A model generated the notes under the pieces. The model saw only the letters and a program-made list of their open reading frames with translations. It ran no database searches and had not been told where the DNA came from. The translations under genes and the position numbers were made by a program. A stretch of DNA of 64,000 nt from Diadema antillarum (Eukaryota): contig NW_027271210.1 of assembly GCF_040938485.1 (NCBI RefSeq), positions 992,001 through 1,056,000 on the forward strand, read 5' to 3'. Positions 6,140 to 52,245 of the stretch are shown here, piece by piece. How positions within the stretch are numbered: position 1 is the first letter of the stretch; every line of letters begins with the position of its first letter.

Positions 6140-6142
<3 letters not shown>

Positions 6143-7241
6143 AGCGAAATCGATCAATTCCGCTGTATGGCCTGTATATAAGCTGTGTATTGATTTTTCA
6201 CTATCGATTATATGAAGGTGTAATCGATCATTGTTGGTAGTAACGTTGGTATAGGCAAGGTCCAAAAATCACGGTTTTGGCCACATTTATGATTATTACA
6301 TAAGATAAGGGCATTAGGGGGGTAAGATGATTGAAGATTCAGAGAGAGGTAATGGATACCAGTAATTTGAGACCAAATTTGTGGGGTTTTGGTTAGAATC
6401 ATTCGCCAAGATTGGTGTTCTAGTGGTGGAAATATTGATTAACTACGCTAACAATTATTTAGTAAAAATACAATTGGGTAATTCAGATTCTGTTTCGATG
6501 TCGAGTTGGGACGGATAAGGTAGGCACGTCTAGTACGTGTTGAGTTGGATCGAGCTGTCAAAGCTCGAGATAGCTGTGTACAAACAGTCTAGTGAAGGCG
6601 ATGATCAGGGTAGTCTACTCCTGATTGCTAGCCAAGTCTAGATATGTGAATGAAACGTACATAGCTAGCTGTCGAGTTGAGACGAGTAAGGCCGGGACGG
6701 GACTTGGAAATTGCGGGACCGGGTCTGCATTCTGAACTGTGTACAATTACTGCGGAAACGAGTTGGACTGTGTTTGTACAGAAGTATTCCCGAATTAAAG
6801 ACTACCTGTTGAACGTTATACCAAGAAGTGACTGGAAGAGTAATCTTTCCTACCAAAGATTCCTGAGCGAGTGCAGGTGAGTCGAGTGGACCTTGATGGT
6901 GACTGGTGGTAAAGAGATTGGTAGATGTAACATAATAGATAAAGTGCGAAGCTGGTATGTTGGACTGTTGATGAAGGACTGGTAGATAACTGGTAGAAAT
7001 AAATTGGTAGCAAGAATTAACTGGTATCTTGGGCCGTATATTGCGGCCAAACGAACTTACGCCTAGCTCGGCCATCCTGATCGAAGTTCGTCGTAGGGCC
7101 CCATTTTCGATACCAATCAATCTATCATCACACATCTATCACCAAACACAAGTTATTCGCTACACCAGAGGGATCTACCCCTTTCTACGATGCGGTGTCA
7201 GGACTGAGGGATATGCCCATATGCGACCGGATTTCGCCACA
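6140..7241 (+). repeat. 5' LTR (1102 bp)
   Basis: Begins TGTAGCGAAATC and ends GATTTCGCCACA (11/12 terminal inverted repeat). Manual alignment to 14881-15982 shows 3 transitions (6626, 6637, 6942). AATAAA at 6998-7003. Confidence 0.97.
6874..6882 (+). promoter_or_regulatory. Consensus 5' splice donor CAG|GTGAGT within the LTR
   Basis: Perfect match to the U1 consensus; intron would start at 6877 (copy at 15618 in the 3' LTR). Use is not demonstrated. Confidence 0.5.
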
Positions 7242-7243
7242 CG

Positions 7244-7261
7244 TGGTGTCAGGAGTGGGAT
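7244..7261 (+). promoter_or_regulatory. Primer binding site, tRNA-Leu (CAG-type)
   Basis: TGGTGTCAGGAGTGGGAT starts after a 2-nt spacer downstream of the LTR and is complementary to the eukaryotic tRNA-Leu 3' end ATCCCACTCCTGACACCA. Confidence 0.9.
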
Positions 7262-7302
7262 TTAAAAGAACCAGCGCTACCAGTGGGAGTTAGGAATCAG
7301 CC

Positions 7303-10300
7303 ATGGCAAAGCAGCTGTCACCGGCGCAGCTATGGAGGAAGCTGCAATCGGAGATGGTAGAAGTGGAGCGGATGATGGACGAACTTCGAGCTGAGATGGG
7401 GATGAGGCGGCCACCACCACCAGTATCAGGAAGTACTGGTAGAGTGAAGCCAGCAGACGGGACCAGCGGCAGGGGTGGTATTTTACAACCACAATATGAC
7501 GTTCCGGGTGCTAAAACCAGCACCAACAGCAGTGGGAGGACGACTGGTGCTACAGCAGGGAGCTGGGCCGACAGTAGCAGGGCAGATGTAACGTTGGAAG
7601 ACGATTACTACCCACCTCCAGCTGACAAAAGGGCGGAGATGAGGCAATGGCAGACTGCATCAAATTCAACCAGAGAGACAACGACAACCAACCCGGTACA
7701 AGAGAGAGAAGTCCCGATAAGAATCAGCACCCCATGGCGCCGCTCTGAATTGTGGGACGAAGGGCAATTCAAGCATCACGAGAGGGGACGTGATGTAATA
7801 ATAAAGATGACACCAGACCGGTACGACGGCAAGGGGCCTATTCTAGATTACCTAACCCACTTCGAGGCATGTGCTGGGGTAAACAGGTGGTCAGAAGAGG
7901 AGGCTCTGCAGTACCTGGCGGCCAGCATGAGAGGTCCTGCAGTTAAGGTACTGGTGCAGCAAACGGGGAGGAAATTAACCTACCAAGAGCTGGTGGGGCG
8001 ACTTAAACACCGATTTGGTCCGGCAGGGAAAGCAGAGATGTTTCTGGCGGAATTACGAACGAGGCGACGAAGACCCAAAGAGTCACTTCAAGAGCTGGGT
8101 CAGAGCATTCGGGAGCTGACGGCTCTAGCCTACCAAGAGTTTGATGAGGCGGGGCAGGACCGCTTAGCTAGGGGACACTTCATGGACGCTGTCGTGAGGC
8201 CGGAAATAAGAGAGGGGATGTTCCGTGCGCAGCCTCGCACGCTAGATGAGGCGATAGAGGCTGCACTAAGCACGGAGGCATTCTTAAAGATGGAGGCGGA
8301 AAGGTGTGACGGAAGGGGACCACGCTACAGCAGGGTGTTAACAAACACCGGTGGGAAACAGAAGGAGGGGACCACCAAGGAGGCTGAGGGTGTAGTCAGC
8401 AAAATGACAAAGGCCGTAGAAAGTCTAATTGCACGGTCTGAGTCTGCCAACCAGAAAGCAGCCAACACGGGAAAGATACCTGCTCTTCCAACAGGAATCT
8501 ACCAGAATGAGAGGTGCTTCAATTGTGGCCAAATGGGGCACTGGAGGAAGGATTGCCCCTTTCCACAAAGACGGCCAGTCTCCAATGCACCCGTCATGGA
8601 TGCAAGAAGATGCTACAACTGTAACCAGGTGGGCCATGGGTGGAGATATTGTCCGTATGGGCAAACGGAGAGACCACCACCAGTGAGCAGCAACCAAGGG
8701 GGAGAACCAGTATCTGCGCAGGGTAATACTGGTCCAGCTCTCCAACCACAACCTGCTGGAAGGGAGCAGGCACGACCATTGGGTACCGCAGATGGTAGAC
8801 GACTGGGCCTCTTCATCAATTCCAAAATCAACGGGCAGCCAATTACCTTCTTGATCGACACAGGCTCCTCCCAGTCAATCGTGTCTACCACCATTTATGA
8901 CACGATTGCAGAGGCACGGAAGCCGTCGCTGCAGAGTGTGGACAGCATAGTACATCAGGCGGACGGTACTCCACTGGGGACCAGGGGTAAAACCATGGCC
9001 GAGATCCAGCTTGGAGAGCTACTGTTCGTGCTGGAAGTAGTGGTAGCTAATGTCAACAGTGAAGGAATTTTGGGGTTGGACTTCCTGATGCAGACGAATT
9101 CAGTGTTGGACTGTCAGAAGATGGAGCTCCGGACGCCATGGGCCATCATTCCATGCCGAGACTACCAGGGCCAACCATTCTGTCATAGAATAGTTGCCAG
9201 TGAAACCACGGCTGTTCCAGCGGGTCATGAGGCCATAATAAAGGGAGAGGTAGCAGACAGACGGCGACAGGCGACTGGGGTTGGTCTGCTAGAAGCACCG
9301 ACAACTTCCACCGAGCTACTACATAAGGGACTACTGGTAGCACGAGCAGTAATCGAAGCAGACGCTGAGATACTACCAGTACGAGTCTTCAACCCAACGA
9401 AGGAAGAGAGAGTAGTAAAGAAAGGGACGACAGTTGCCTGCTTGACTGGAGTACGTGATACTGAAGATGTGGAGGCGATTCGAGACGGTGGGGTACAAGC
9501 TAGTGATGGGGTGCCATCACATTTGACGGAGCTGCTACATCGTAGTATCCAAGAGGTTCCGCAGCAATACCACTCATTGGTGGCCGAATTGCTGTGCGAA
9601 TTTACTGATGTCTTCTCCAAAGGACCAACGGATCTGGGCAGAACTGATTTGGTGCAACACACGATTTCTACCGGTGACGCTAGGCCAGTGAGACAAACAC
9701 AAAGGCGGCACCCAATGGAGCAACGACAGGAAATTGATAAGCAGATAAACGAGTTCCTCTCCCAGGGTTTGATCGAACGGGTCAGTAGCCCTTGGGCATC
9801 CAATGTGGTTCTCGTACGGAAGAAGGATGGTAGTAAGCGCTTTTGTGTGGACTACAGGCAGCTGAACGCTGTCACACTGAAGGACGCATACCCTCTACCA
9901 AGAATCGATGAAACATTAGATGCACTGAGTGGGGCTCAGTGGTTCTCTACACTCGACTTAGCAAGCGGGTATTGGCAGGTGGAGCTGGACGAACAAGCAA
10001 AGAAGAAGTCAGCATTCATTGCCAATGGTGGTCTGTATGCATGGCGGGTCATGCCCTTTGGCCTATGCAATGCACCGGCCACGTTCGAGAGGCTAATGGA
10101 TCGAGTGATGGCGGGCCTGACGTGGGAGACGCTACTGGTGTATTTGGACGTTGTCATCGTTTTTGGTAAGACGGTGGAGGAGGAGCTTGGTCGACTGAAA
10201 ACTGTGTTCCAGCGATTGCGTGGGGCTGGTCTGAAACTGAAACCTGCTAAGTGCCAACTGTTCCACACTACTGTGGAATACCTGGGGCACATCGTCTCAT

Positions 10301-12578
10301 CTACTGGGGTAACCACGGAGCCAGAGAAGGTCGCGGCCATCCAAAATTGGCCGAAACCAAACAGCGTCAAAGAGGTGCGGAGCTTCATAGGACTGGTCTC
10401 CTACTACCGGAAGTTTGTGGAAGGATTTGCTTCGATCGCTAAACCACTCCACCAACTCACCAGAAAGAACCAGAGGTTTCTCTGGACAGAGGAATGCCAG
10501 GAGGCTTTCGACAAATTGAAGCAACGACTGGTGTCACCTCCAATTCTGGCGTATCCCTGCCCAGAAGGGGACTACATTTTGGACACAGATGCCAGCCAGC
10601 ATGGAATCGGAGCCGTGCTGTCGCAAGTACAGGGAGGAACTGAGAGAGTTATTGCGTACGGAAGCCGCACGCTACGTAAGGAAGAAGTCAACTACTGTGT
10701 CACCAGGAAGGAATTACTGGCAGTGGTAGCCTTCCTCAACCAGTTCCGACAGTATCTCTATGGAAGGCATGTGATCATCCGCACTGACCATGGATCATTG
10801 CAGTGGTTGGTTTGATTCAAGGACCCCAGAGGGCAGCTGGCACGATGGTTGGAGCTGGTATCGGAGTACGATTTCGAGATACAGCACCGGCAGGGGAGGA
10901 GCCATGGAAATGCTGATGGTCTATCTCGGAGACCATGTAGGCAGTGTGGCCGGGACCAAGAAACCCCACCCGGGCAAGTCAGAGCACTGACAGAGGAGGC
11001 GTTGGGAGCCCCGAGTATTCGGAGTCTTCAGGAGAAGGATGAGGACATACAAGTGGTGAGAGCTGCGAAGATTCGAGGGGTGAAGCCAGCCAATGAAGTG
11101 GTGTCATCTTGGCCGGAAAAAGCAACTCGATTGTTGGAGCACTGGGACGCATTGGAGGTGGTAGATGGCGTGCTGGTCCGCAGATGGGAGTCAGCGGATG
11201 GTACCAACACCCGGAGACAGACCATCCTACCAAGGGAGCTCATAAAGAATGCGATACATGAGGTCCATTCTGCTCTTACTGGGGGACATTTGGTATCCAG
11301 AAGACACTGGGACGATTGAAGTTGCGGTACTACTGGGTCGGCATGGCAGCTGATGTTCGTTCGACCCTCAGACAGTGTGACGTGTGTGCCAGAAGGAAGT
11401 GTCCTGGTAAAGCTGCTCGAGCACCACTACAACAAAGGATTAGTGGGTTCCCGTTGGAGAGAGTGGCATTGGACATCATGGGCCCTTTCCCCCGGACCAA
11501 GCATGGGAACAAGTACATCCTGGTGATTGGCGACCACTTCACAAAATGGATGGAGGCCTACCCAATACCAGATGAAAGGGCGGAGACCGTGGCAGAGAGA
11601 CTGGTGGTGGAGTACATCTGTCGATTTGGGGTACCAAGATTCGTACATTCGGATCAAGGCCGAAATTTCATCTCTGAAGTCTTCAGTGAAGTCTGCAAGC
11701 TGATGGGGGTGAAAAAGACCAGGACCACAGCCTACAACCCAAAGTCAGACGGGTTCGTAGAAAGGTACAACCGCACCCTAATAGACACAGTTGCTGCACT
11801 ACTGGACGTGGAGAGGCAGGAAAAGGATTGGGATCAACTTCTCCCTTTCGCCACCTGTGCCTACCGCAGCTGTGCTCAGGACTCGACTGGGGAAACTCCC
11901 AACATGCTAATGTTGGGGCGAGAGGTGGTATTGCCCGGTGACATCGTCACACCAGATGATGTTGACAGCCAGCAGGACCTCCAGACCGATTATGCGGAGG
12001 AGCTACGGGCTCGAATGCAGAGGGCCCACAACCGAGCCAGGGTGAAACAGATGTCGGCCTGTAGAAAGCAGAAACGATTCTACGACCAGAAGGCCCATGG
12101 ATCTGCCTTCAACCAGGGCCAGTATGCGTGGCTACGGCGGAAGATGAGGGTGAAAGGACAGAGTCCAAAACTTCAGACCAAATGGCTGGGACCGTACCTG
12201 ATAGTCACCAAAATATCGGATGTGACTGTTCGACTCCAGTTGACACCTCGCTCCAAGCCATTGGTTGTCCACGTAGATCGGTTGAAGCTGTACACAGGGG
12301 TACCGAGACCAGTTTGGGAGTTCGAACCAAACACGGCGGTGGTACAAGCTAGAGACCAGCAGCAAGCCACTGCTGCCGACGTGGAGCTGGACGAGTCAGG
12401 GCTGGAAGAAGCTGGTGCTACTCACCCCTCTAGCTATGAAGAGAGAGAAGTGGATTCTCAACCGCCAGTTAGGAACCGGAAGTCTCCGACTGTGCCAACG
12501 GCATGCGACGATGATGACTGGAATGGAGGAAGGCGTTATCCGAAGAGGGATAGGCGTCGGCCGCAGTATTATAATTAG
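7303..12578 (+). pseudogene. gag-pol: Gypsy gag-pol polyprotein, disrupted (segments 7303-10815, 10816-11292 in the same frame, then frame of 11316-12578)
   Basis: Gag CA (PDRYDG...HFEACA), two CCHC knuckles (8515-8556, 8611-8652), protease LIDTGS (D at 8857), RT (LPRID, PFGLCNAPATF, YLDV at 10141-10152), RNase H (ILDTDAS), integrase HHCC + D11472/D11652/E11760 + GPY. In-frame TGA at 10813-10815. A 1-nt deletion at ~11292; restoring it gives GGHLGIQKTLGRLKLRYYW. Confidence 0.95.
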
Positions 12579-12693
12579 GCACTAAGTAACGAATCTAAAT
12601 AATCGAGTGATACTCGAATGTATTCGATGAGCTAAATAATAAGGATTAAAGACTGTGGTATTATTAATGTGCAGGTGCAGTGCAGGCAACGAC

Positions 12694-14097
12694 ATGGCAT
12701 CTTCCAAAAAGGGGGATTTGTACAGTCCCTTCAACGATTATTTCGGGCTGAGTAAGCTGGTATCAACGGGGAGGAAGAAGAGGGAGACCGTGGACCAAGA
12801 GACGGGCAACCAGTTCTTTGATTTTGAACAGGTGCGAGGCTCGTTCAATAGCTACCTGGGGTTAGACGAAGGGGAAGCGACAGTGACGAAGAAGAGTGGA
12901 TCCCAGGACCTAGGGACGAGATACCAGTATCCGGCCTTACGGAGGGACGGCGATGCAGCTGCGTGTCTGTCAACTGGTAGCCGTTGGCTGAGCAACGAGG
13001 GGATTCTACCAGACATCACCACTCTAAGAGGACGAGATGGAAGTGATGGACCACTCAGCAGATCAGTGTCTTGGTGCGTTTTCTGCAAAAACAATGGTGA
13101 AAGTTTGCAGGTCTACGGAAGCCACGCGCTGAAGTCCATAGACGGGAAAACTACCTGTCCTGTACTTCGGGCATACAGGTGCCCGATTTGTCGCGCCACC
13201 GGGGACGAGGCTCACACCATTAAGTACTGTCCATTATCAAGAAAGAAAAAGCTGCCTGGGTCAGCAGAGCCAGGATCTACCAGTAACATCAGCACAGCGG
13301 CGCTGTATTTTAAAACCCCACGGAATGCTGCCGGACGGCTGAGGAGCTGTAATACCAGAACGATGTCCACCCCCGGAAAACCCAAGTCCTGTTCAGACAG
13401 GGGAGAAGTCTACCGTTGTAAGGTGTGCCGGCGGTCCTTTTCCAGTAAAAGCTCGATGCAACGACACGAATTCGACGTGCACACCCCCAAATTTAGGTGT
13501 GATCGCTGTGCTTTCCAGACGCTGCACAAGCGAGAATTAGAACGCCACTACGGGACTCACGCCACCGATGTAGCTCCAGGGCGGGTACATTTGAAAACCC
13601 CAGTTTATGCGCCAATTAGGAGTAAGAAGCCGCCGTCAACGGAAACCAGACCCAGGAGTAGATCCCCCCTGTGCCCCTCTACTCCAACCCCTTCCCGGTG
13701 CACGCCTGAGAGGTGCACCCCAGAGAGGAGTGTCAGCCCAGTGAGGAGCGTCACATCTGAAAGAAGCAGTACCCCGGTGCTGGATGAGGACAGCTGTGGT
13801 AGCGGGCTCCTCGACCTGACTGGCGGAAGGCGGCGATTAGTAATCGAGGACGTGGTACCTGAAGTCAAATCCCCGGTAACATGTGGAATCGGGGTCCAGG
13901 TGTCACCATCCGACATTGACGGGGGGATTATCCGAGGGAGGCTAGGAGAATTACGACGCAGAGGGAAGACCAGTTTCAGCGCTACCGAGACGCTGGTGTT
14001 GCGGCCTGGCCGAACGTGGACCAGGAAGACGGAGCGGTTCCTGACGACTGGTGGCGAGTTTTTGGAGGTAGTGACCGAAACCGTGGAGGAAAAGTAG
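12694..14097 (+). CDS. nanos: Retrotransposon-borne Nanos-like protein fused to 2 C2H2 zinc fingers and an S/T-P-rich tail (467 aa from ATG 12694; alternative ATG 12667)
   Basis: NIM-like YSPFNDYFGLSKLV (12721-12762); Nanos finger C-X2-C-X12-H-X10-C-X7-C-X2-C-X7-H-X4-C (13075-13230); C-terminal LYFKTPRNAAGR; C2H2 pair 13411-13560; no introns or stops. Confidence 0.92.
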   Translation: MASSKKGDLYSPFNDYFGLSKLVSTGRKKRETVDQETGNQFFDFEQVRGSFNSYLGLDEGEATVTKKSGSQDLGTRYQYPALRRDGDAAACLSTGSRWLSNEGILPDITTLRGRDGSDGPLSRSVSWCVFCKNNGESLQVYGSHALKSIDGKTTCPVLRAYRCPICRATGDEAHTIKYCPLSRKKKLPGSAEPGSTSNISTAALYFKTPRNAAGRLRSCNTRTMSTPGKPKSCSDRGEVYRCKVCRRSFSSKSSMQRHEFDVHTPKFRCDRCAFQTLHKRELERHYGTHATDVAPGRVHLKTPVYAPIRSKKPPSTETRPRSRSPLCPSTPTPSRCTPERCTPERSVSPVRSVTSERSSTPVLDEDSCGSGLLDLTGGRRRLVIEDVVPEVKSPVTCGIGVQVSPSDIDGGIIRGRLGELRRRGKTSFSATETLVLRPGRTWTRKTERFLTTGGEFLEVVTETVEEK

Positions 14098-14845
14098 TGG
14101 AAGCGAAATTTTGGTAGAAGTGCGTGGGCAGATATGGACGTTAAACATAATTTGCCCAAATTGAGTTTGGACAATAAGTTATAATTGGACGTTTCTGAGG
14201 ACTGTTCGCGAAGATAGTGAAAGTGGTAGCGGATACCGGAAGGAAGATGTGGAAGCGATTATTGGTAGAGAAGGGCAGATACGGACGCTAAATTTAATCT
14301 GTCTAATTTTAAATTGGACATTAAGTTGTTAAAAGTGAACATTCCCAAGGACTGATGGACATTACTAATGTAATTGTTCTGGAAGAACGATGGTATTAAG
14401 TTGGATTCAATGAAGCTTATGTACGGAGATGTAGTGATTCCACGGAGTAGTGGAGGGACGTCATTGAAGCGATACCAGGTGTTGGTAGAATTGGTTTGAA
14501 GAGTTGGTAGAACCATATTGGTATCCACATTACAATTGGTAGATATGGTAATGACTGGTCTTGGAGTCTTAGCTTTCTTCTTCTCAAATTTTGAGTTGGT
14601 TGTGTCCATGTTGGAAGAAAGGGGGTATTAGACAAGGTTGGAGAGGTGGCGTTAAAAATGTACATAATGTTAATGGTTTTAAAGGAATGATGAGTGTTAT
14701 TAGAAATCATAAGGTGATGTTTTAAAAGGATTTGGTGGTGGACACCAGTATAAGTATTTTGGTAGTTGATACCAGTCGGAATGTGATGGAGGTCGGTTTG
14801 TGTTTAAAGTGTTGACGTTTAAAGTGTTTAAGATTGAAGTGGTAT

Positions 14846-14880
14846 AAGCTCGGGGACCGAGCTTGGTGGGTCGGGGGTCG
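14846..14880 (+). promoter_or_regulatory. Hairpin (AAGCTCGG-GGA-CCGAGCTT) plus G-rich polypurine-tract equivalent abutting the 3' LTR
   Basis: Position immediately 5' of TG at 14881. GGTGGGTCGGGGGTCG is G-rich but not pure purine. Confidence 0.65.
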
Positions 14881-15979
14881 TGTAGCGAAATCGATCAATT
14901 CCGCTGTATGGCCTGTATATAAGCTGTGTATTGATTTTTCACTATCGATTATATGAAGGTGTAATCGATCATTGTTGGTAGTAACGTTGGTATAGGCAAG
15001 GTCCAAAAATCACGGTTTTGGCCACATTTATGATTATTACATAAGATAAGGGCATTAGGGGGGTAAGATGATTGAAGATTCAGAGAGAGGTAATGGATAC
15101 CAGTAATTTGAGACCAAATTTGTGGGGTTTTGGTTAGAATCATTCGCCAAGATTGGTGTTCTAGTGGTGGAAATATTGATTAACTACGCTAACAATTATT
15201 TAGTAAAAATACAATTGGGTAATTCAGATTCTGTTTCGATGTCGAGTTGGGACGGATAAGGTAGGCACGTCTAGTACGTGTTGAGTTGGATCGAGCTGTC
15301 AAAGCTCGAGATAGCTGTGTACAAACAGTCTAGTGAAGGCGATGATCAGGGTAGTCTACTCCTGATCGCTAGCCAAGCCTAGATATGTGAATGAAACGTA
15401 CATAGCTAGCTGTCGAGTTGAGACGAGTAAGGCCGGGACGGGACTTGGAAATTGCGGGACCGGGTCTGCATTCTGAACTGTGTACAATTACTGCGGAAAC
15501 GAGTTGGACTGTGTTTGTACAGAAGTATTCCCGAATTAAAGACTACCTGTTGAACGTTATACCAAGAAGTGACTGGAAGAGTAATCTTTCCTACCAAAGA
15601 TTCCTGAGCGAGTGCAGGTGAGTCGAGTGGACCTTGATGGTGACTGGTGGTAAAGAGATTGGTAGATGTAACATAATAGATAGAGTGCGAAGCTGGTATG
15701 TTGGACTGTTGATGAAGGACTGGTAGATAACTGGTAGAAATAAATTGGTAGCAAGAATTAACTGGTATCTTGGGCCGTATATTGCGGCCAAACGAACTTA
15801 CGCCTAGCTCGGCCATCCTGATCGAAGTTCGTCGTAGGGCCCCATTTTCGATACCAATCAATCTATCATCACACATCTATCACCAAACACAAGTTATTCG
15901 CTACACCAGAGGGATCTACCCCTTTCTACGATGCGGTGTCAGGACTGAGGGATATGCCCATATGCGACCGGATTTCGCC

Positions 15980-15982
<3 letters not shown>
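14881..15982 (+). repeat. 3' LTR (1102 bp)
   Basis: 1099/1102 identical to the 5' LTR by manual comparison; AATAAA at 15739-15744. Confidence 0.97.
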
Positions 15983-26808: not shown

Positions 26809-27251
26809 ACACGTTCACTGCACCTATATACGTAACTAGTACACAAAGACACCTACACACAGCAGAGAGGAATGAAAGAGAGAGGGGGAGTGTCCACCGA
26901 CAGTCGAAAAACACATTAAACATGTTGACTAGAAATACTTTGCGACACCAGCTGCTGAAAAAGTAAGGAAAAGAAAAACCAACGACAGTGAATTTGAAAA
27001 GAGACCACAATTGAACAGTTCGATAACCACGGCAAGCATAAAATATGAAGAAATATTTACATATATTCAGATTATGACATGTCAACCATAGTAAGATATG
27101 TATGTTCAACTGCTATTTTTTGAGCAGGATCAGCTTTCAGAATTGACAACTCTTGTTTGACACACAACATCATTAGTCGTGTTCGTATAATGTTTAATTA
27201 TCATTGTTGCTGCTATGTTTTTTTTTCTTCTATGTTCTAGGATTAATCACC

Positions 27252-29102
27252 ATGGCAACGAGTCATCAGATCAGCAGCCAGAATCTGGAGTGTCCTGTCT
27301 GTCTGACACTCTTCAACCAACCCAAATCATTGACGTGTTCTCATACCTTCTGCAAAGACTGCCTAGAACGCATCTTTCTCACTCAGACAAACCAACATAC
27401 TATATCATGCCCTGTATGCAGGACAGAGACTTCTGTACCGAATGGAGAGGTGGCTAAGTTACAAACAATTGTGGCGCTGGGTTCTCTTGTGGACGAAGTG
27501 AAGACCAACAATCCCACATGCACAGTTTGTGAGCTGGACGCAAAGCCCCCAGCTGTGTCCTACTGTCAGACATGCATGGAAAACATGTGTTTATCCTGTG
27601 AGAAAGACCATTCTGTCTGGAAAAGGTTCTCCAACCACGCAGTGGTGGCCGTGAGCGAAGTGGTCTCTGGGAAAGTTCCACTTAAGAGGCGACGAAAGTG
27701 TAAGGAACACCCTAACGAGGATAAAGACTGTTTCTGCACCGGATGTCGGGAGTACGTCTGCTTCAAATGCGGGATGTTGGAGCACACGCAGGAGGGACAT
27801 GGGATGGTAAAGGCACAAAAACATGAGAAAATGACACTGGAAAATATCAAGGAACTACAGAGAAGAACAAACTCAAAGAAAACAATCGTTGAAGAACACA
27901 TCGACTTCATAGAGAAACAACGCAAGGAGATATCAAACATGATGACAAAGCTCAACGATGACATAGACAAGACGTACGAGGAATGCATGCAACGTTTGTC
28001 AGAGAGAAAAGAGACACTTAAATGTGAAGTGAGGCAATTGTCTGAAATGTTTGAGAAGGAATTGCACGTCATGGCGGAAAGGAGTCATCGAACTCTCAAT
28101 CGAATGAACGCTGCGGAGGAGCTGGTAGCTAACGGTATAAAGGTACCGTTAGAGAAAGACGCCTTGATTACACACGAAACAGTTTGCGAGAACTTCAAGA
28201 ACATTTTGGAACGAAATTATCTTAACGACCAATTACCAATATATGTGAAAGAACGAGCTCAGAAGATTTCATTCCATAAACAGGAGATGGTCAATGATCC
28301 TTGTCTTGGAGAGCTTAAAGGTTATAAGTGGGATGTCAAAACATGCGTAGAGTTACCTAAGTGCTGCTATGGTGTGCACTGTATCAGCCGTGCACCAGAC
28401 AATAAGATGGCAGTGGCACGTCATGATGGAATCCTTCTCTACTCCCATGATGGTGAGTTACAAGACTGGGTACTACAGAATCATTGTATTTATGCAATTG
28501 CATTCCTGTCTGACGGTCGAAGTGTCGTACAAGATCTTAACGAGATTTCACTGTACACTCGACAGTGGGAGAAACTCGATATTGGATTTAAGTCAAGTCA
28601 CGACCTACATAAATATCACTGTCGTCTTTTCACTGATCTAAATGATGATATCTACGTGAACATTCGGAATTCGAAAATCATCGAGGTATTTACCCCACAG
28701 GGTGGTAAGGTAGTCAGAGAAATCATGTCTGATGGATATTCATTTCCGCGATTATTCTCCTTTCAATCCGCTGAAAACATGATACTGACAGATAGAGATA
28801 CCGTCGTGTGCATTGATAGTAAAGGGACAAAGGAAATTATCTTGCAGAAAAAGGACATGTTTGCATCCCAAGCTGTTTGTCGAGATGACTCAGTCATTGT
28901 AGTCTGGGTGAATAAAGATGAGAGTCTTATTAGTATCGATCGATACACGAGTGACCTCCAGCACCTTCAGAATCTCGTCAGTGATTTCAAAATGCGTGAA
29001 TTATGGTACTGGGCCTACTACTACTACGGCCTACAAGAGTTTGAGAGTGGCGAGATAGCATTCTGTACGAATAATGAACTCTGCATATTTCATACAACAT
29101 AA
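27252..29102 (+). CDS. TRIM E3 ligase (RING-Bbox1-Bbox2-coiled coil-NHL-like propeller), paralog 1, 616 aa, single coding exon
   Basis: C3HC4 RING CPVC...CSHTFCKDC...CPVC; B-box1 CTVC...CQTC...CLSC...H; B-box2 CKEH...CTGC...CFKC...H; helical region; beta-rich C-terminus. Pyrimidine tract + AG acceptor at 27240, 11 nt before the ATG. Confidence 0.92.
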   Translation: MATSHQISSQNLECPVCLTLFNQPKSLTCSHTFCKDCLERIFLTQTNQHTISCPVCRTETSVPNGEVAKLQTIVALGSLVDEVKTNNPTCTVCELDAKPPAVSYCQTCMENMCLSCEKDHSVWKRFSNHAVVAVSEVVSGKVPLKRRRKCKEHPNEDKDCFCTGCREYVCFKCGMLEHTQEGHGMVKAQKHEKMTLENIKELQRRTNSKKTIVEEHIDFIEKQRKEISNMMTKLNDDIDKTYEECMQRLSERKETLKCEVRQLSEMFEKELHVMAERSHRTLNRMNAAEELVANGIKVPLEKDALITHETVCENFKNILERNYLNDQLPIYVKERAQKISFHKQEMVNDPCLGELKGYKWDVKTCVELPKCCYGVHCISRAPDNKMAVARHDGILLYSHDGELQDWVLQNHCIYAIAFLSDGRSVVQDLNEISLYTRQWEKLDIGFKSSHDLHKYHCRLFTDLNDDIYVNIRNSKIIEVFTPQGGKVVREIMSDGYSFPRLFSFQSAENMILTDRDTVVCIDSKGTKEIILQKKDMFASQAVCRDDSVIVVWVNKDESLISIDRYTSDLQHLQNLVSDFKMRELWYWAYYYYGLQEFESGEIAFCTNNELCIFHTT

Positions 29103-32100
29103 CGTGCACTATGATCAAAGTTGTTTGTTCTGTAGGAACAATCAGAAGAATTAGTCGAAGTGGGATTACCGAACTTACTTGCGCTCCAGGTGTATTTCTG
29201 CATTATTGCCTTCATTTGCGTCACTCGAAACTGTATAACTTATAATTGATTGCAAAGAGAAAACGTACATCAAAACGTTTGTCATTGACAGTTTATCAAT
29301 CGGTTAAATCGATTCGATCAAAATTCTGAATTATATATGAGGGTTCGAACAAAGGTATCATTTCTTGTGCCCATAAAATAGAGCCATTAGGTATACAGGA
29401 GCCGTGTAAACCCCGAACACAATAATGGATCTTCCGCTGTCTAGTGGAAATGACTTTACTATAATATCACTCTATAGGTATTCACCAAATACAAAAGTCC
29501 GCTATAAAGCTTCAGCTAAGAGGTATATAGTGCAGTGGTAACTAATGGTATGTTGTACTATATAGATAATGCATGAGTCAAACAAAAGATACGTATAGAT
29601 CACACGTAGATGTTCGCACTCTTGAAGAAATAATCACTTAAAGTATCACAGCAGTAATAATCGCTTTCCTTCTATTTTTTTTTGCAAGACAATCACATTT
29701 TCCTTATGTATAACAGATTACGTGAACCTAATATTGAATTGATTTATATCATCATGATTATTCGTTCGAGTCATGTTATCAATTCAAAGTGCACCATGTC
29801 AGACTTCCCATTATTATGCAGACCGGCAGTATTTCTGTCATTCGTGCCACGTACACTGAGTATCCACCCAATTGAAAGCATTAGTGTGAATCACAAACGA
29901 TGAAAAGTCAATAGGAAAATTGTAAAAAAAAAAGTAAAAAGAGATTAAAGACGTGTTTTTGTTTTCATATAAATCAAGAACATAATTTGTGTTTTCCTTC
30001 CGACAGAATATAGTTATATCATAAGTTATATCATTGTTCAGAACTTAAATTTGCCAAGCCTTAATTACAGCAACTCTGACAATTCGATTCAGATGTACAA
30101 TTAGATCTCTCCTTCAGATGACTTGCATCAACATGTGAAGCCTAATATCATTCAAAATAGATCCAATATAGAGCCTAGAAATCTGTCCGTTTCGTTGAAT
30201 CAAGGTAACAACTGCAACAATTATTATGAGCGTTTGCCATTAGATACTATGGGGGGGGGGAAGAAGTTATAACATGTATTATTATAATATGTTATGTTTC
30301 AGATTTCTGATGACTTGCTTTAAGAATACGTATTGCGTAACTTTGAAGAACCCAGAACCAATGAATTCTCAGATTTTGTATGTGTGTGTGTGTAAGGTAA
30401 AAACACACATTTTGGGGAGAGGACGCTCTTCTAGCATGTATACAGGCGTACAAAAATGGAATTTGTTAGCTTATGATTTGAAATAAGTTTTTTTTTTTTT
30501 AAACCAGATTTCAAACAATTAATTTCAGTTTTGATCAGTTACGCGCCACTTTGTCTTGTTGTTTGTGGATCGTCTTCATTATAAGCTTTATAATTCTTTT
30601 CTTTTGGCTGCATACTCTTTATTTGTAACATGATTATGTCACTCAATCTCTTGTATTTAGTTGGTATGTATTTCACTTCTTTTTATGCTGTTCACGGATA
30701 AAAAGCAAATTGCCGTCGCCATGCTAAACAGTTACTGAAACTAATCTGAAACTGTATCCTCGTCAACGCTTGTAACTTCCCTTTGATTCCCTTTTATAAA
30801 TTAAGTCTAGTTTAGTTTCAGTTAATTTTATTTGATCACGGCAATTTTCCTCTGCAAACCTGTTCTTCTGCAAATCCTTAAACCTTTCATATTCATGTGT
30901 CCCATGCGTTAAGATTTATTATGTACAATCCGCCCAAAATATGAACGTGTGGAGGAAAGACAGAAAGCCGTAGGAGATGAGAAATACTTTTCATTCAAGA
31001 AAGGGTTTCCTATGACAAATTTTTATCAGTTATCCCCCTGTGTAACAAATGTAGTTGTACGATCATAACTGTTACTCTATTTTAAAAGAATACGGCGGAA
31101 ATAGGAAGCTGTGGGATTCGAAACTGTCACCACGCTATCCTTGGTCGCTGCATGGAAGTGAAACGATGAACCTGGAACAAACAAACAGGCTCCGCAATTC
31201 CGACATTGTTATGCTAAATAGTCAAAGGCGCACAATGGTTGCTGAATGGAAAAACATAAAATCATTAATGCGGGGGGGGGGAGGAGTGGGTTGAAAATAG
31301 GCTATTGCAGATTTTTGTCAACTATCACCCTCTGTACAAAATGTACTCTTATTTGTACGATCGTGACTCCTAATTCACATTTTTGGGACCCAATTACATC
31401 GAATTTCTCCATTTTGATCTTCTTTTGAAAACACAATTTTGACGAACTTGACATGTTGCTATGCCGCTCTGGAAGCTCCCCAAGTTTGGAATGTTTTGTT
31501 TTGTCTTGTTTGTTTTTGTTTATTTTTACTTTCTGTCAATAGTCTGCAAAAATGTGTAGAAGGTGAACTCATGATACTCGGGTGAGCTTGATTTTACACG
31601 TATATTTTTTCGGTGTTGTGTAGATTCTTCAAATAAATATATAATTAGGTGATAGTCCTGTCACTTGTAAGCAATCATTTTTTTTTTGATAGAGATGAAA
31701 ACGTAATTATGTTATTGTATTTACATCTATGTAAAGCGTCATTAGTATACAGCACTTATAGTTCATTGGAGGATAAGATGATGATTTCATCGTTGAGTGA
31801 ATTGTAGACCGCATGCCTGCCGTATAGTAAATACTTGTAACATGCGAGAACTTCACTATACTTCACATGTTGTTATTTTGGTATATGTAGATATTTTTTC
31901 CTGTTGATGTACATATAACTAAGATTTCATTCAGCGAGAAAATATAAATAGTCAGAAAAATTCATTTCGTATCACAGGAAAAGCAGTGGCAGATAAATTA
32001 CACATTTACTCAATTATAAAAGCGCCCAAAAAGATTTAGATAATATTCTTCGATTAAACAGGAAAATGTAATGTCCAAATAACTCCAAATGACGTACATC

Positions 32101-49416: not shown

Positions 49417-51264
49417 ATGGCAACAATTCATCAAATCAGCATGCAGAATCTGGGGTGTCCTGTCTGTCTGACACTTTTCAACCAACCGAAAACGCTATTT
49501 TGCAGTCACACATTCTGCAAAGACTGCTTGGAACGTATCTTTCAAACTCAAACCAACAAACATGCTATAACATGTCCTGTGTGCAGGCAAGGAACTTCAG
49601 TTTATAACGGAGATGTGGGTCACTTACTTCCAAGCGTAGTCCTAAATTCTCTCGTGGACGAAGTGGAAACCATCAGGAATTCAACACCAACATGCACACT
49701 TTGTACAGGCACAGACAAAAAAATGCCAGCTGTGTCCTATTGTCAGGACTGTGGGGATAGTATGTGTACATCCTGTGAAAAAACACATCTAATCTGGACA
49801 CCGTTCTCCAACCATGCAGTTGTGGATATGAAGGAGGTTGTCTCTGGGAAGGTTCCGCTTAAAAGACGACGGAAGTGTAACGAGCACCCTAACAGCGATG
49901 AACAATGTTTCTGTACCGGATGTCGAGAGTACGTGTGTTGCATATGTGGAATGTTGAAGCACTCACAGAAGGGACATGGAATGGTTAAGGCATCAAAACA
50001 CGAGAAAAAATTATTGGAAAATGTTAAAGAATTACAGAAAAGAGCAAGCTCAAAGAAAATAATCCTTGAAGAACACATTGAGTTCATAGAAACACAACAC
50101 AAGGAAATATCAGATATGATGAGAAAGCTCAATGATGACATAGACAAGGCGTACGAGGAAAACATACAACTATTGTCAGCCAGAAGAGAGGCGCTCAAAT
50201 GGGAAGTGCGGCAACTTTCTGAAGAATTCAAGAAAGAATTGAATATCATGAAGGAAAGGAGTCGTCTAAGAATCACTCAAATTAACGCTGCGGAAGAGCT
50301 GGTAGCTGACGGTGTGAAGTTGCCGTTGGAGAAAGATGCATTGATTACACACCACACACTGTGCGAGAACCTGGAGACCCTTCTTGGACAAAATTATCCT
50401 AACGACCAATTACCGAGATATGTGAAAGAACGAGCTCAGAAGATTTCATTCCATAGACAGGTGACGGTCAATGATCCTTGTCTTGGAGAGCTTAAAGGTC
50501 ATACTTGGGATGTCAAGACGCGCGTAGAGCTACCTGTCGACGAGGATGCAATGACTTGTATCACTCGTGCACCAGACAATAAGATTGCTGTGTCCTGGAA
50601 TCGTGGAATCCTTCTCTACTCCCATGATGGCGAGTTACAGGACAGGCTTCTGCAAGATCACTATATTACTGCGATTGCTTTCCTGTCTGATGGTCGAAGT
50701 GTCATAAATGATGACGATAACATTTTTCTCTACACTCGACAGTGGGAGAAACTCGATATCGAATTTGAATCAGGTAACTTTCTAGGTGTACATTTTGGTA
50801 ATCTCTCTACTGATGCAAGCGATAACATCTACGTGGGTTTTGAGTGGTCGAAAGTCATAGAGGTATTTACCCCACATGGTGGTAAATCAGTCAGGAAAAT
50901 AATGTGTCATGGATATTCACCGTGGCAATTATTCTCCTTTAAATCCACGGAAAACATGATACTGACGGACAGAGAAACCGTCGTGTGCATTGATAGTGAA
51001 GGGAGAAAGGTCCATACCATGCAAAAAGAGAACAAATTGGCATTCCCAGCTGTTTGTCGAGATGATTCGGTCATTGTAGCCTGGGTAGATGAAGAGGAGA
51101 GTCTTATCAGTATCGATCGATACACGAGTGATCTCGAGCACCTTCATAATCTCATCAGTGATTTCAGAACAAGTGAGTCAGACTACTACGGTCTGCAAGA
51201 GTTTGAGAGTGGCGAGATAGCATTCTGTCTGGATGATGAACTCTTCATATTCCATACAACCTAA
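49417..51264 (+). CDS. TRIM E3 ligase (RING-Bbox1-Bbox2-coiled coil-NHL-like propeller), paralog 2, 615 aa, single coding exon
   Basis: Same architecture and colinear with paralog 1; acceptor TACAG| at 49405, 11 nt before the ATG. Confidence 0.92.
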   Translation: MATIHQISMQNLGCPVCLTLFNQPKTLFCSHTFCKDCLERIFQTQTNKHAITCPVCRQGTSVYNGDVGHLLPSVVLNSLVDEVETIRNSTPTCTLCTGTDKKMPAVSYCQDCGDSMCTSCEKTHLIWTPFSNHAVVDMKEVVSGKVPLKRRRKCNEHPNSDEQCFCTGCREYVCCICGMLKHSQKGHGMVKASKHEKKLLENVKELQKRASSKKIILEEHIEFIETQHKEISDMMRKLNDDIDKAYEENIQLLSARREALKWEVRQLSEEFKKELNIMKERSRLRITQINAAEELVADGVKLPLEKDALITHHTLCENLETLLGQNYPNDQLPRYVKERAQKISFHRQVTVNDPCLGELKGHTWDVKTRVELPVDEDAMTCITRAPDNKIAVSWNRGILLYSHDGELQDRLLQDHYITAIAFLSDGRSVINDDDNIFLYTRQWEKLDIEFESGNFLGVHFGNLSTDASDNIYVGFEWSKVIEVFTPHGGKSVRKIMCHGYSPWQLFSFKSTENMILTDRETVVCIDSEGRKVHTMQKENKLAFPAVCRDDSVIVAWVDEEESLISIDRYTSDLEHLHNLISDFRTSESDYYGLQEFESGEIAFCLDDELFIFHTT

Positions 51265-52245
51265 CGTGAGTTAGGTTCAACGTTATTGGGTCTGTATAGA
51301 ATCAATGAGGGGTTAGCCGAAGTGGCATTGCCGAACTGACTTGCATTCAACGTGTATTTCCGCTATGTCACCTTCATGTGCGTCACTCTAATCTGTATAG
51401 AGTCTTGATGTTTTCTTTCAAATTTCTAATGGAATTTTTTCTAGAATATGTATTGCAAAATTTTAAAGAATCCAGAACAAATAACTTTTTGAGAAATTTG
51501 TTTCGTGTATTAAGGTAACAACAGAATTTTTGGAAAAGAACTCTCTATTAGAGGCGTGAAGAGTTGGAATCTGCTTGTGCATGATTTGAAATGTAAGCTT
51601 TCTTTGCCCGATTTTAAACGAGCTTCATAATGCGGCGTTTCTAGTTTCAGCAACTGTCCGGGATTTTTTTTTCTGGATCGTCTTCAACGTTAGCTTATTT
51701 TTTTTTTCTTTTCGATTGTACCTTTTATTTGTTACTTGAGTTATGTCAGTCACTCTATTATTGTATGCACTTTGAATGTATTTTTTGTTCTTTTTATGTT
51801 GATCACGGATTTGCAGAAAAGCACATTGCCGTGAATAACATTAACTGAAACTAGTCTGAAACTGTATGTCTTCGTCAACACTTGGAACTTCCCTTTGTTG
51901 CACTTTTACAACCTCATAATTTATGTTTCATACATTAGGATTTATTTGTAGTCAATCTGACAGTTGGTGATATGAAAGAGTGGACGATAGGCAGAAAGCC
52001 GTAGGAGATGAGAAATACTTTACATACAAGTAAGGGTTGGCTATGTCATACTTTTTTATCAATTATCACCCTGTACATGTTAATGTGTTTTAAGCGAACA
52101 CGTTGAAAATAGGAAACAATAGGATTCGAAAATATCATCTGGGTTACTGTTTTCCAGACAACGACACAGCCACCAGGCTATCTTTGGTCACCGGCAGTGA
52201 CATGATGAACTTCGAAGAAATATACTCAGGCTCCTGAGTTCCGGC

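Follow-up and report, generated by a model that had tools for sequence, protein, structure and literature searches.

A captured nanos gene and a conserved C2H2 accessory gene of a Diadema antillarum Gypsy element, probably joined in a single copy after splicing

We analysed a stretch of 64,000 nucleotides from Diadema antillarum (assembly GCF_040938485.1, contig NW_027271210.1, positions 992,001 to 1,056,000 of the forward strand), referred to here as the window and numbered from its first letter. At 6140-15982 we identified a young Ty3/Gypsy LTR element (family A; related lineages are called B, B2, C, D and E) inserted in a TA microsatellite. Its LTRs are paired, 1102 bp long and bounded by TG...CA; a putative primer-binding site, TGGTGTCAGGAGTGGGAT, directly follows the 5' LTR, and the domains follow the Ty3/Gypsy order of gag, protease, RT, RNase H and integrase. 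The open reading frame (ORF) studied here lies 3' of integrase. The features of the element are as follows.

6140-7241, + strand: 5' LTR, 1102 bp, TG...CA ends, 3 mismatches relative to the 3' LTR
6874-6882, + strand: splice-donor-like consensus CAG/GTGAGT in the LTR, 80 nt after AATTAAA (6793)
6918-7026, + strand: six HTGGTA repeats clustered 3' of the LTR donor-like site, with similar clusters in B and C LTRs
7303-12578, + strand: gag-pol (zf-CCHC, protease, RT, RNase H, integrase), interrupted at 10813-10815 by a stop and near 11289 by a 1-nt indel
12650-12685, + strand: putative acceptor-like site or sites before the nanos ATG, ranking 14 of 685 AGs in the L032 copy by a simple home-made score
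12694-13358, + strand: captured nanos gene, zf-nanos at 13075-13230
12721-12750, + strand: NIM-like motif YSPFNDYFGL, so labelled by resemblance
13356-13362, + strand: fusion junction CAG/AACG, with a spacer of 156-185 bp absent between 13358 and 13359
13363-14097, + strand: accessory C2H2-tail ORF, 244 aa, a separate gene in all other copies and families
13417-13560, + strand: two C2H2 zinc fingers, from sequence patterns and an AF2 model
13582-13788, + strand: Arg/Ser/Pro-rich linker, predicted disordered, with an excess of [ST]Px[KR], and with RSRSP and TPxxDE
13807-13821, + strand: LLDLT after an acidic stretch, an exact match to the SIM-b pattern
13885-13905, + strand: GIGVQVS, candidate LC8-binding motif, its Gln invariant in A, B, B2 and C
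13921-14091, + strand: conserved tail domain, predicted to fold as a helix and an antiparallel sheet of three strands, with an LRPG motif
14881-15982, + strand: 3' LTR

Both breaks in pol are private to the window copy, as the stop occurs in 0 of 5 covering copies and the indel in 0 of 7. The frame at 12643-14097 is open for 484 codons from stop to stop and specifies 467 aa from the ATG at 12694, with an internal Met at 13363. An earlier note on this DNA had described its C-terminal half as two C2H2 fingers, a cluster of CDK sites and several short motifs fused to Nanos, and every one of these motifs lies where it was placed: finger 1 (C-X2-C-X12-H-X4-H) at 13417-13482, finger 2 (C-X2-C-X12-H-X3-H) at 13498-13560, TPER at 13702 and again at 13717, SPVR at 13735, LLDLT at 13807-13821 and GIGVQV from 13885. 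If transcribed, the window copy would make a Nanos-C2H2 chimera; selection on such a chimera finds no support here.

The N-terminal part is a nanos gene with tandem CCHC zinc fingers, recognised by the Pfam model zf-nanos (PF05741) at an E value of 4.6e-24 and 84.9 bits (cut-off 27). The closest host nanos, L055, is 79% identical in the zinc-finger region. The element YSPFNDYFGL aligns with YHPFTDYFGL of the host nanos; we take it to resemble the CNOT1-binding NIM consensus of vertebrates and some invertebrates, and treat it as a candidate only. A C-terminal KTPR...GR motif is also common to the element nanos and a host nanos. Relative to L038, dN/dS is 0.27 in the finger region and 0.45 over the whole nanos ORF. 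The host carries two nanos genes, each as a near-identical pair (L054/L055 and L052/L053), and a further locus, L056, with two nanos fragments; L055 is closer to the captured gene, and in its partner L054 the N-terminal motif is missing from the corresponding frame. Like the Nanos family described in PMC4003280, the element gene combines a CCHC zinc-finger domain with low-complexity extensions, and it shares the aromatic N-terminal NIM-like motif with host gene L055. It differs in being borne by a retrotransposon and in having, in the window copy only, a second protein appended; the domain scheme in PMC4003280 includes no C2H2 fingers.

The earlier note had proposed that the C-terminal half was a pre-existing accessory ORF of a retroelement, and this is borne out by its occurrence in families B, C, D and E, where nanos is absent, by an outside relative (P0001) and by purifying selection. 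The C2H2 ORF lies after pol in each family and has its own start Met in every one of them: in B a second protease stands between, in C it follows directly, and it recurs in the more distant D and E. The slot before it holds nanos in A, a second aspartic protease in B and nothing in C and D. The dN/dS of the C2H2 ORF is 0.36 for the window copy against L040, 0.20 for B against B2 and 0.16 within B, all unsaturated and significant, and the ORF is under purifying selection; the window copy against L032 gives 0.26, not significant (p 0.08), and comparisons of A with B or C are saturated. In an RT tree of 25 rows (rows with an RT match shorter than 150 aa being left out), A, B and C each group together, with their order among themselves not fixed; the polarity of the nanos gain comes from the absence of nanos from B-E and not from this tree.

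Several observations concern family B and its neighbours. The second aspartic-protease ORF (L044:6570-7136, L045:6570-7136) has a DTG motif, is ~45% identical to the window pol protease and stands, in the slot that nanos occupies in family A, behind a strong acceptor-like site (rank 1 of 729). A 459-bp integrase deletion is common to many B copies (L044, L045, L050, L080-L083, L087) with near-identical LTRs, and since the deletion is shared and yet the LTRs are near-identical, a non-autonomous B lineage appears to be spreading. Private in-frame microhomology fusions join the second-protease N-terminus to the C2H2 ORF (L050/L070) and integrase to the second protease (L071). At L047 and L048, elements of families B and C stand in tandem and share one LTR, their repeats of 1.9-2.4 kb being 100% identical.

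Outside the assembly, a profile search among 1.84 billion representatives identified a full-length stand-alone relative of the C2H2-tail protein (P0001, 267 aa, E 2e-78) and three partial relatives (P0087, P0110 and P0112), all of them ENA singletons. Among the best 150 matches, these 4 single-stretch matches are the apparent true relatives, and the other 146 are multi-stretch, finger-only matches. A word-seeded search with the C-terminal half at near lengths gave 0 matches among 2509 candidates, and one with the tail against proteins of 428-2000 aa gave 0 among 591, which is weak evidence. Two limited protein searches, with the whole fusion and with the tail region, found no fused form outside the genome.

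Both fingers have the C-X2-C-X12-H-X3/4-H pattern and, in an AF2 model built on a 7-row alignment, a predicted beta-beta-alpha fold at pLDDT ~90. Pfam C2H2 models match weakly: on the C-terminal half none reaches its curated cut-off, and the best E is 2.2e-5. In a fold search with the whole model the best matches were all C2H2 arrays, none at E <= 0.001, and an ESM Atlas search with the whole protein gave generic C2H2 clusters. A long low-confidence linker separates the fingers from the tail, in which residues 187-243 are predicted to form a helix and three strands (pLDDT 71-87; mean 79 for the tail modelled alone). LRPG is invariant in A, B, C and P0001/P0112, and tail dN/dS against L040 is 0.19; D and E tails align poorly. 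The best fold match to the tail reached Z 4.4 among 48,161 chains, a value that shows neither a new nor a different fold; a search for viral folds gave none at E <= 0.001, and the ESM Atlas no usable match to the tail.

The linker carries 4 [ST]Px[KR] sites against 0.75 in composition shuffles (p=0.0025). Families B, B2 and C show such an excess too, with p 0.0008-0.015 (the segment used for B is mis-anchored and takes in the fingers), and full CDK-type sites exceed the shuffles in four lineages. TPxxDE (window 13768-13788) is invariant in A, B, C, P0001 and P0087, the last two being both outside relatives that cover it. The TPER repeat, considered as a conserved feature, was found in family A only.

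The earlier comparison of LLDLT with the CtBP motif PxDLS fails, as the Pro is absent and P.DL[ST] has no match in the ORF. The site fits instead the SUMO-interacting SIM-b pattern, given in PMC3395311 as (PILVM)-(ILVM)-D-L-T near acidic residues, which arises by chance at 0.003 in a shuffled 244-aa protein. It reads LLDLT in A, B and B2, VIDLC in C and LLALT in P0001; the SIM-b match is not kept in P0001, D or E.

Of the likeness of GIGVQV to LC8-binding motifs, which the earlier note itself had called weak pattern matching, the sequence context stands. All 7 aligned rows keep the Gln, as part of GVQV in A, of VQV in B and of ATQT in C, within a region predicted to be disordered (pLDDT <50), and the LC8 motif, according to PMC12057147, is Gln-anchored, 8-10 residues long and placed in disordered regions, with VQV-type anchors among those occurring. 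A predicted complex with host LC8 scored 0.46 against 0.02 for the best control, with runs agreeing on at least 83% of contacts and a partner pLDDT that does not fall below 48. Of 78 solved complexes 51 reach the mark, as do 2 of 108 mismatched pairs, yet only 5 of the 78 do so with a score of 0.60 or less, the range that holds all 4 mismatches that passed out of 180. Because LC8-peptide complexes have been solved, the pass may stem from likeness to them. The prediction faintly suggests that GIGVQVS might bind LC8. The host LC8 gene family is expanded and partly tandem (L092-L099; C41, C616 and others in G000), and 19 of its 23 matches span nearly the whole Pfam model in one open frame.

Searching the genome with the C-terminal half gave at least 71 matches. 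The closest copies are 97-99% identical in DNA, and their alignment splits into two pieces that meet at 13356-13358. All 15 related loci examined across the junction (14 scored by frame, L042 read from the alignment) retain the spacer, at 156-185 bp; five allelic or duplicated pairs among them leave 10 independent insertions. As these loci all retain the spacer, nanos and the zinc-finger ORF are two distinct genes. A scan of the 1.75 Gb assembly for the joined 19-mer, allowing 1 mismatch, gave a single occurrence. One further insertion, seen at two loci (L040/L061), carries a larger deletion, after which nanos and the fingers do not share a frame. The earlier note had asked whether the junction is open in other copies, and it is so in 0 of the 15 spacer loci and 0 of the 2 larger-deletion loci. 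The fusion is almost certainly private to the window copy, and the idea that the element has evolved a fusion protein as one of its characters does not survive the retention of the spacer in 15 of 15 loci and the single occurrence of the joined sequence.

A stop right after RNAAGR in other copies had been named beforehand as the sign of a private mutation, and this sign is present. In all 7 loci of the youngest subgroup nanos ends RNAAGRLRSC[N/D]TR, with its stop just inside the spacer, 7 residues past RNAAGR. The older loci stop earlier or run in another frame: nanos is in another frame at the junction in L038/L060, and its stop lies upstream of the donor-like site in L039/L058, L041 and L043/L057. 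Since the older A relatives end nanos before the donor-like site, and the oldest pair (L043/L057) is without the spacer GT, the fusion is not ancestral.

In the close copies the spacer starts with GT, ends with AG behind a pyrimidine-rich stretch and holds the nanos stop; of these hallmarks of an intron, the oldest pair lacks the GT. The donor-like CAG/GTAGCG fits the usual consensus at -3 to +3 only. In six lineages the C2H2 ATG is preceded, at a distance of 0-10 nt, by an acceptor-like AG that falls within the top 2% of AGs (ranks 3 of 685 in A, 7 of 729 in B, 1 of 117 in B2 with 1.5 kb scored, 2 of 477 in C, 1 of 551 in D and 5 of 305 in E), by a simple home-made pyrimidine score that, like the null, was set after the sites were seen. 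Because the lost spacer runs from GT to AG and ends at a conserved acceptor-like site before an ATG, we favour splicing followed by reverse transcription, which probably gave rise to the fusion. A cryptic donor at the nanos 3' end would have been joined once to the acceptor of the C2H2 gene, and the spliced nanos-C2H2 RNA would then have been packaged and integrated. Read in this way from the DNA, the window copy is likely to constitute DNA-level proof that an accessory acceptor is used in the germline. Overall, the 467-aa ORF probably consists of two accessory genes that are otherwise separate, the captured nanos and the older gene with C2H2 fingers, brought together in one copy, with the spacer likely to have been spliced out before reverse transcription. 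The L040/L061 deletion, which may represent a further splice to the C2H2 acceptor that eroded later, starts at another CAG/GT inside nanos, but its right end does not show this.

The spacer could alternatively have been lost by a template switch of the reverse transcriptase or by DNA repair at the 3-nt CAG microhomology of the junction, which would make the GT...AG ends and the frame coincidental and the fusion a private accident. Short-microhomology deletions are frequent in this clade, and some yield in-frame fusions (L050/L070, L071). A and B copies hold 14 other independent deletions (50 bp or longer), the majority at short microhomologies, of which 1 can be placed as GT..AG and 0 end at an ATG-proximal acceptor. 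The left end of the lost spacer also lies on ATACCAG, a motif found near other breakpoints (L039/L058, L070). Such an origin is nevertheless unlikely. If every deletion that a family A copy could undergo at a microhomology of 3 nt or more is considered, 2.0% are placeable as GT..AG, and only 0.03-0.05% would end GT..AG at the ATG-proximal acceptor, a rate that, multiplied by the number of deletions, leads us to expect ~0.007 such events among 15.

It is also conceivable, though we consider it improbable, that the spacer is a regulated intron of the youngest subfamily, which would have evolved an alternatively spliced chimera: unspliced RNA would give Nanos and spliced RNA a functional Nanos-C2H2 protein, and the window copy would be a cDNA fossil, left when that isoform was reverse-transcribed. 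The nanos frame of the 7 youngest loci (6 insertions) is indeed open up to the donor-like site and in frame with the C2H2 ORF, a read-through that followed the loss of a 28-nt stretch holding the older nanos stop. Joining in frame, however, has a chance of 1 in 3, fusion is impossible in the 7 older loci scored, and the C2H2 Met behind the acceptor is retained in all families. The joined ORF is unbroken whereas pol of the same copy carries two breaks, but this shows no selection, as the rate of breaks in pol predicts only ~0.5 for 1.4 kb. Moreover, 0 of 58 Nanos relatives (256-818 aa; word-seeded search with the whole fusion, best 7991 candidates scored) have another Pfam domain. Were the isoform real, the chimera would tie the element's own zinc-finger regulator, with its SUMO and LC8 binding, to a translational repressor stolen from the germline, and the transposon could steer germline mRNAs or its own silencing.

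An assembly error in the window contig is very improbable: the locus is single, one flank probe found no second allele and the same copy has the private 1-nt pol indel, but the remaining ORF is 97-99% identical to its sister copies without indels, and a clean loss of 156-158 bp with exact GT/AG ends is atypical for a consensus error.

Returning to the reading as two accessory genes joined after splicing, the LTR site at 6874-6882 is a candidate major donor for subgenomic mRNAs, and GTGAGT or GTAAGT occurs at comparable places in family B and C LTRs. The ATG-proximal acceptors together with the LTR CAG/GTGAGT suggest subgenomic mRNAs running from the LTR to each accessory gene; each gene would normally be translated from its own mRNA, spliced from the LTR donor to the acceptor before its ATG. 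The HTGGTA motif reaches 6.5-12.4 per kb in three LTRs (A, B and C) against 0.87 per kb in the window flanks, and the cluster behind the donor is a candidate binding or packaging signal. Three families (window, L044, L049) carry such clusters in the 3' half of their LTRs, with a 13-nt period in C; ATACCAG, the reverse complement of the motif, occurs at 12921, 13352, 14472 and 14769 and also close to several breakpoints of deletions.

An element that carries splice sites has to export unspliced RNA all the same, a task that CERV performs for Cer1, and we therefore propose a nuclear regulator role for the C2H2-tail protein. We see about an even chance that the stand-alone protein acts in the nucleus in the manner of Rev or CERV and regulates how the element is expressed or its RNA exported, a role suggested by architecture and analogy. 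The protein might bind the element's own nucleic acid and license expression or export of unspliced genomic RNA, with the HTGGTA cluster, present only in unspliced RNA and LTR DNA, as the candidate target. Proline-directed phosphorylation of the linker could act as the switch of the protein, LC8 could dimerise it, and the SIM-b motif could bring it to SUMO-marked chromatin. The main alternative within this proposal is a transcriptional activator or anti-silencing role exerted via the LTR DNA.

CERV of the C. elegans LTR retrotransposon Cer1 is made from a spliced mRNA, is nuclear and, depending on phosphorylation, exports unspliced genomic RNA; it has 517 aa, shares exons with gag and contains the domains H, M and G and perhaps a C4 finger (PMC10309623). 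The C2H2-tail protein is likewise an accessory product of an LTR retrotransposon and combines zinc-binding with flexible parts; an export role is proposed for it. In this case the ORF lies 3' of pol and has two C2H2 fingers and a small helix/three-strand tail. The ORF3s of bdelloid LTR retrotransposons, as described in the abstract of PMC5408684, encode env-like proteins, GDSL esterases and DEDDy exonucleases. They share with the present ORFs a position as swappable non-env ORFs after pol in metazoan elements, so that extra ORFs of this sort are an already known kind, and they differ in that neither a nanos nor a C2H2 ORF is named in that abstract (PMC5408684). A literature search that covered few subscription journals and no Repbase-type catalogues found neither a paper on a nanos-carrying Gypsy element nor one on this C2H2 accessory family.

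The arrangement also recalls that of complex retroviruses. These have one major 5' donor, several accessory acceptors and small regulatory ORFs 3' of pol (Rev/Rex, Tat/Tax/Tas). The present element has, as read from its DNA, one candidate 5' donor, putative ATG-proximal acceptors and small ORFs 3' of pol, and differs in having no env, a Gypsy-type pol and a donor inside the LTR. What stands is a Gypsy clade built like complex retroviruses, with a likely LTR donor, ATG-proximal acceptors and an exchangeable slot, whose conserved C2H2 accessory protein bears a tail of no recognised family. As only one copy is joined, we regard this stand-alone zinc-finger protein as the real find and the chimera as probably a one-off. 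The retention by a transposon of a germline determinant under purifying selection is relevant to the conflict between transposons and the germline. Elsewhere in the window, a duplicated segment of raised GC, 74-84% identical between its two copies, lies at 27223-29134 and 49388-51296, ~22 kb apart.
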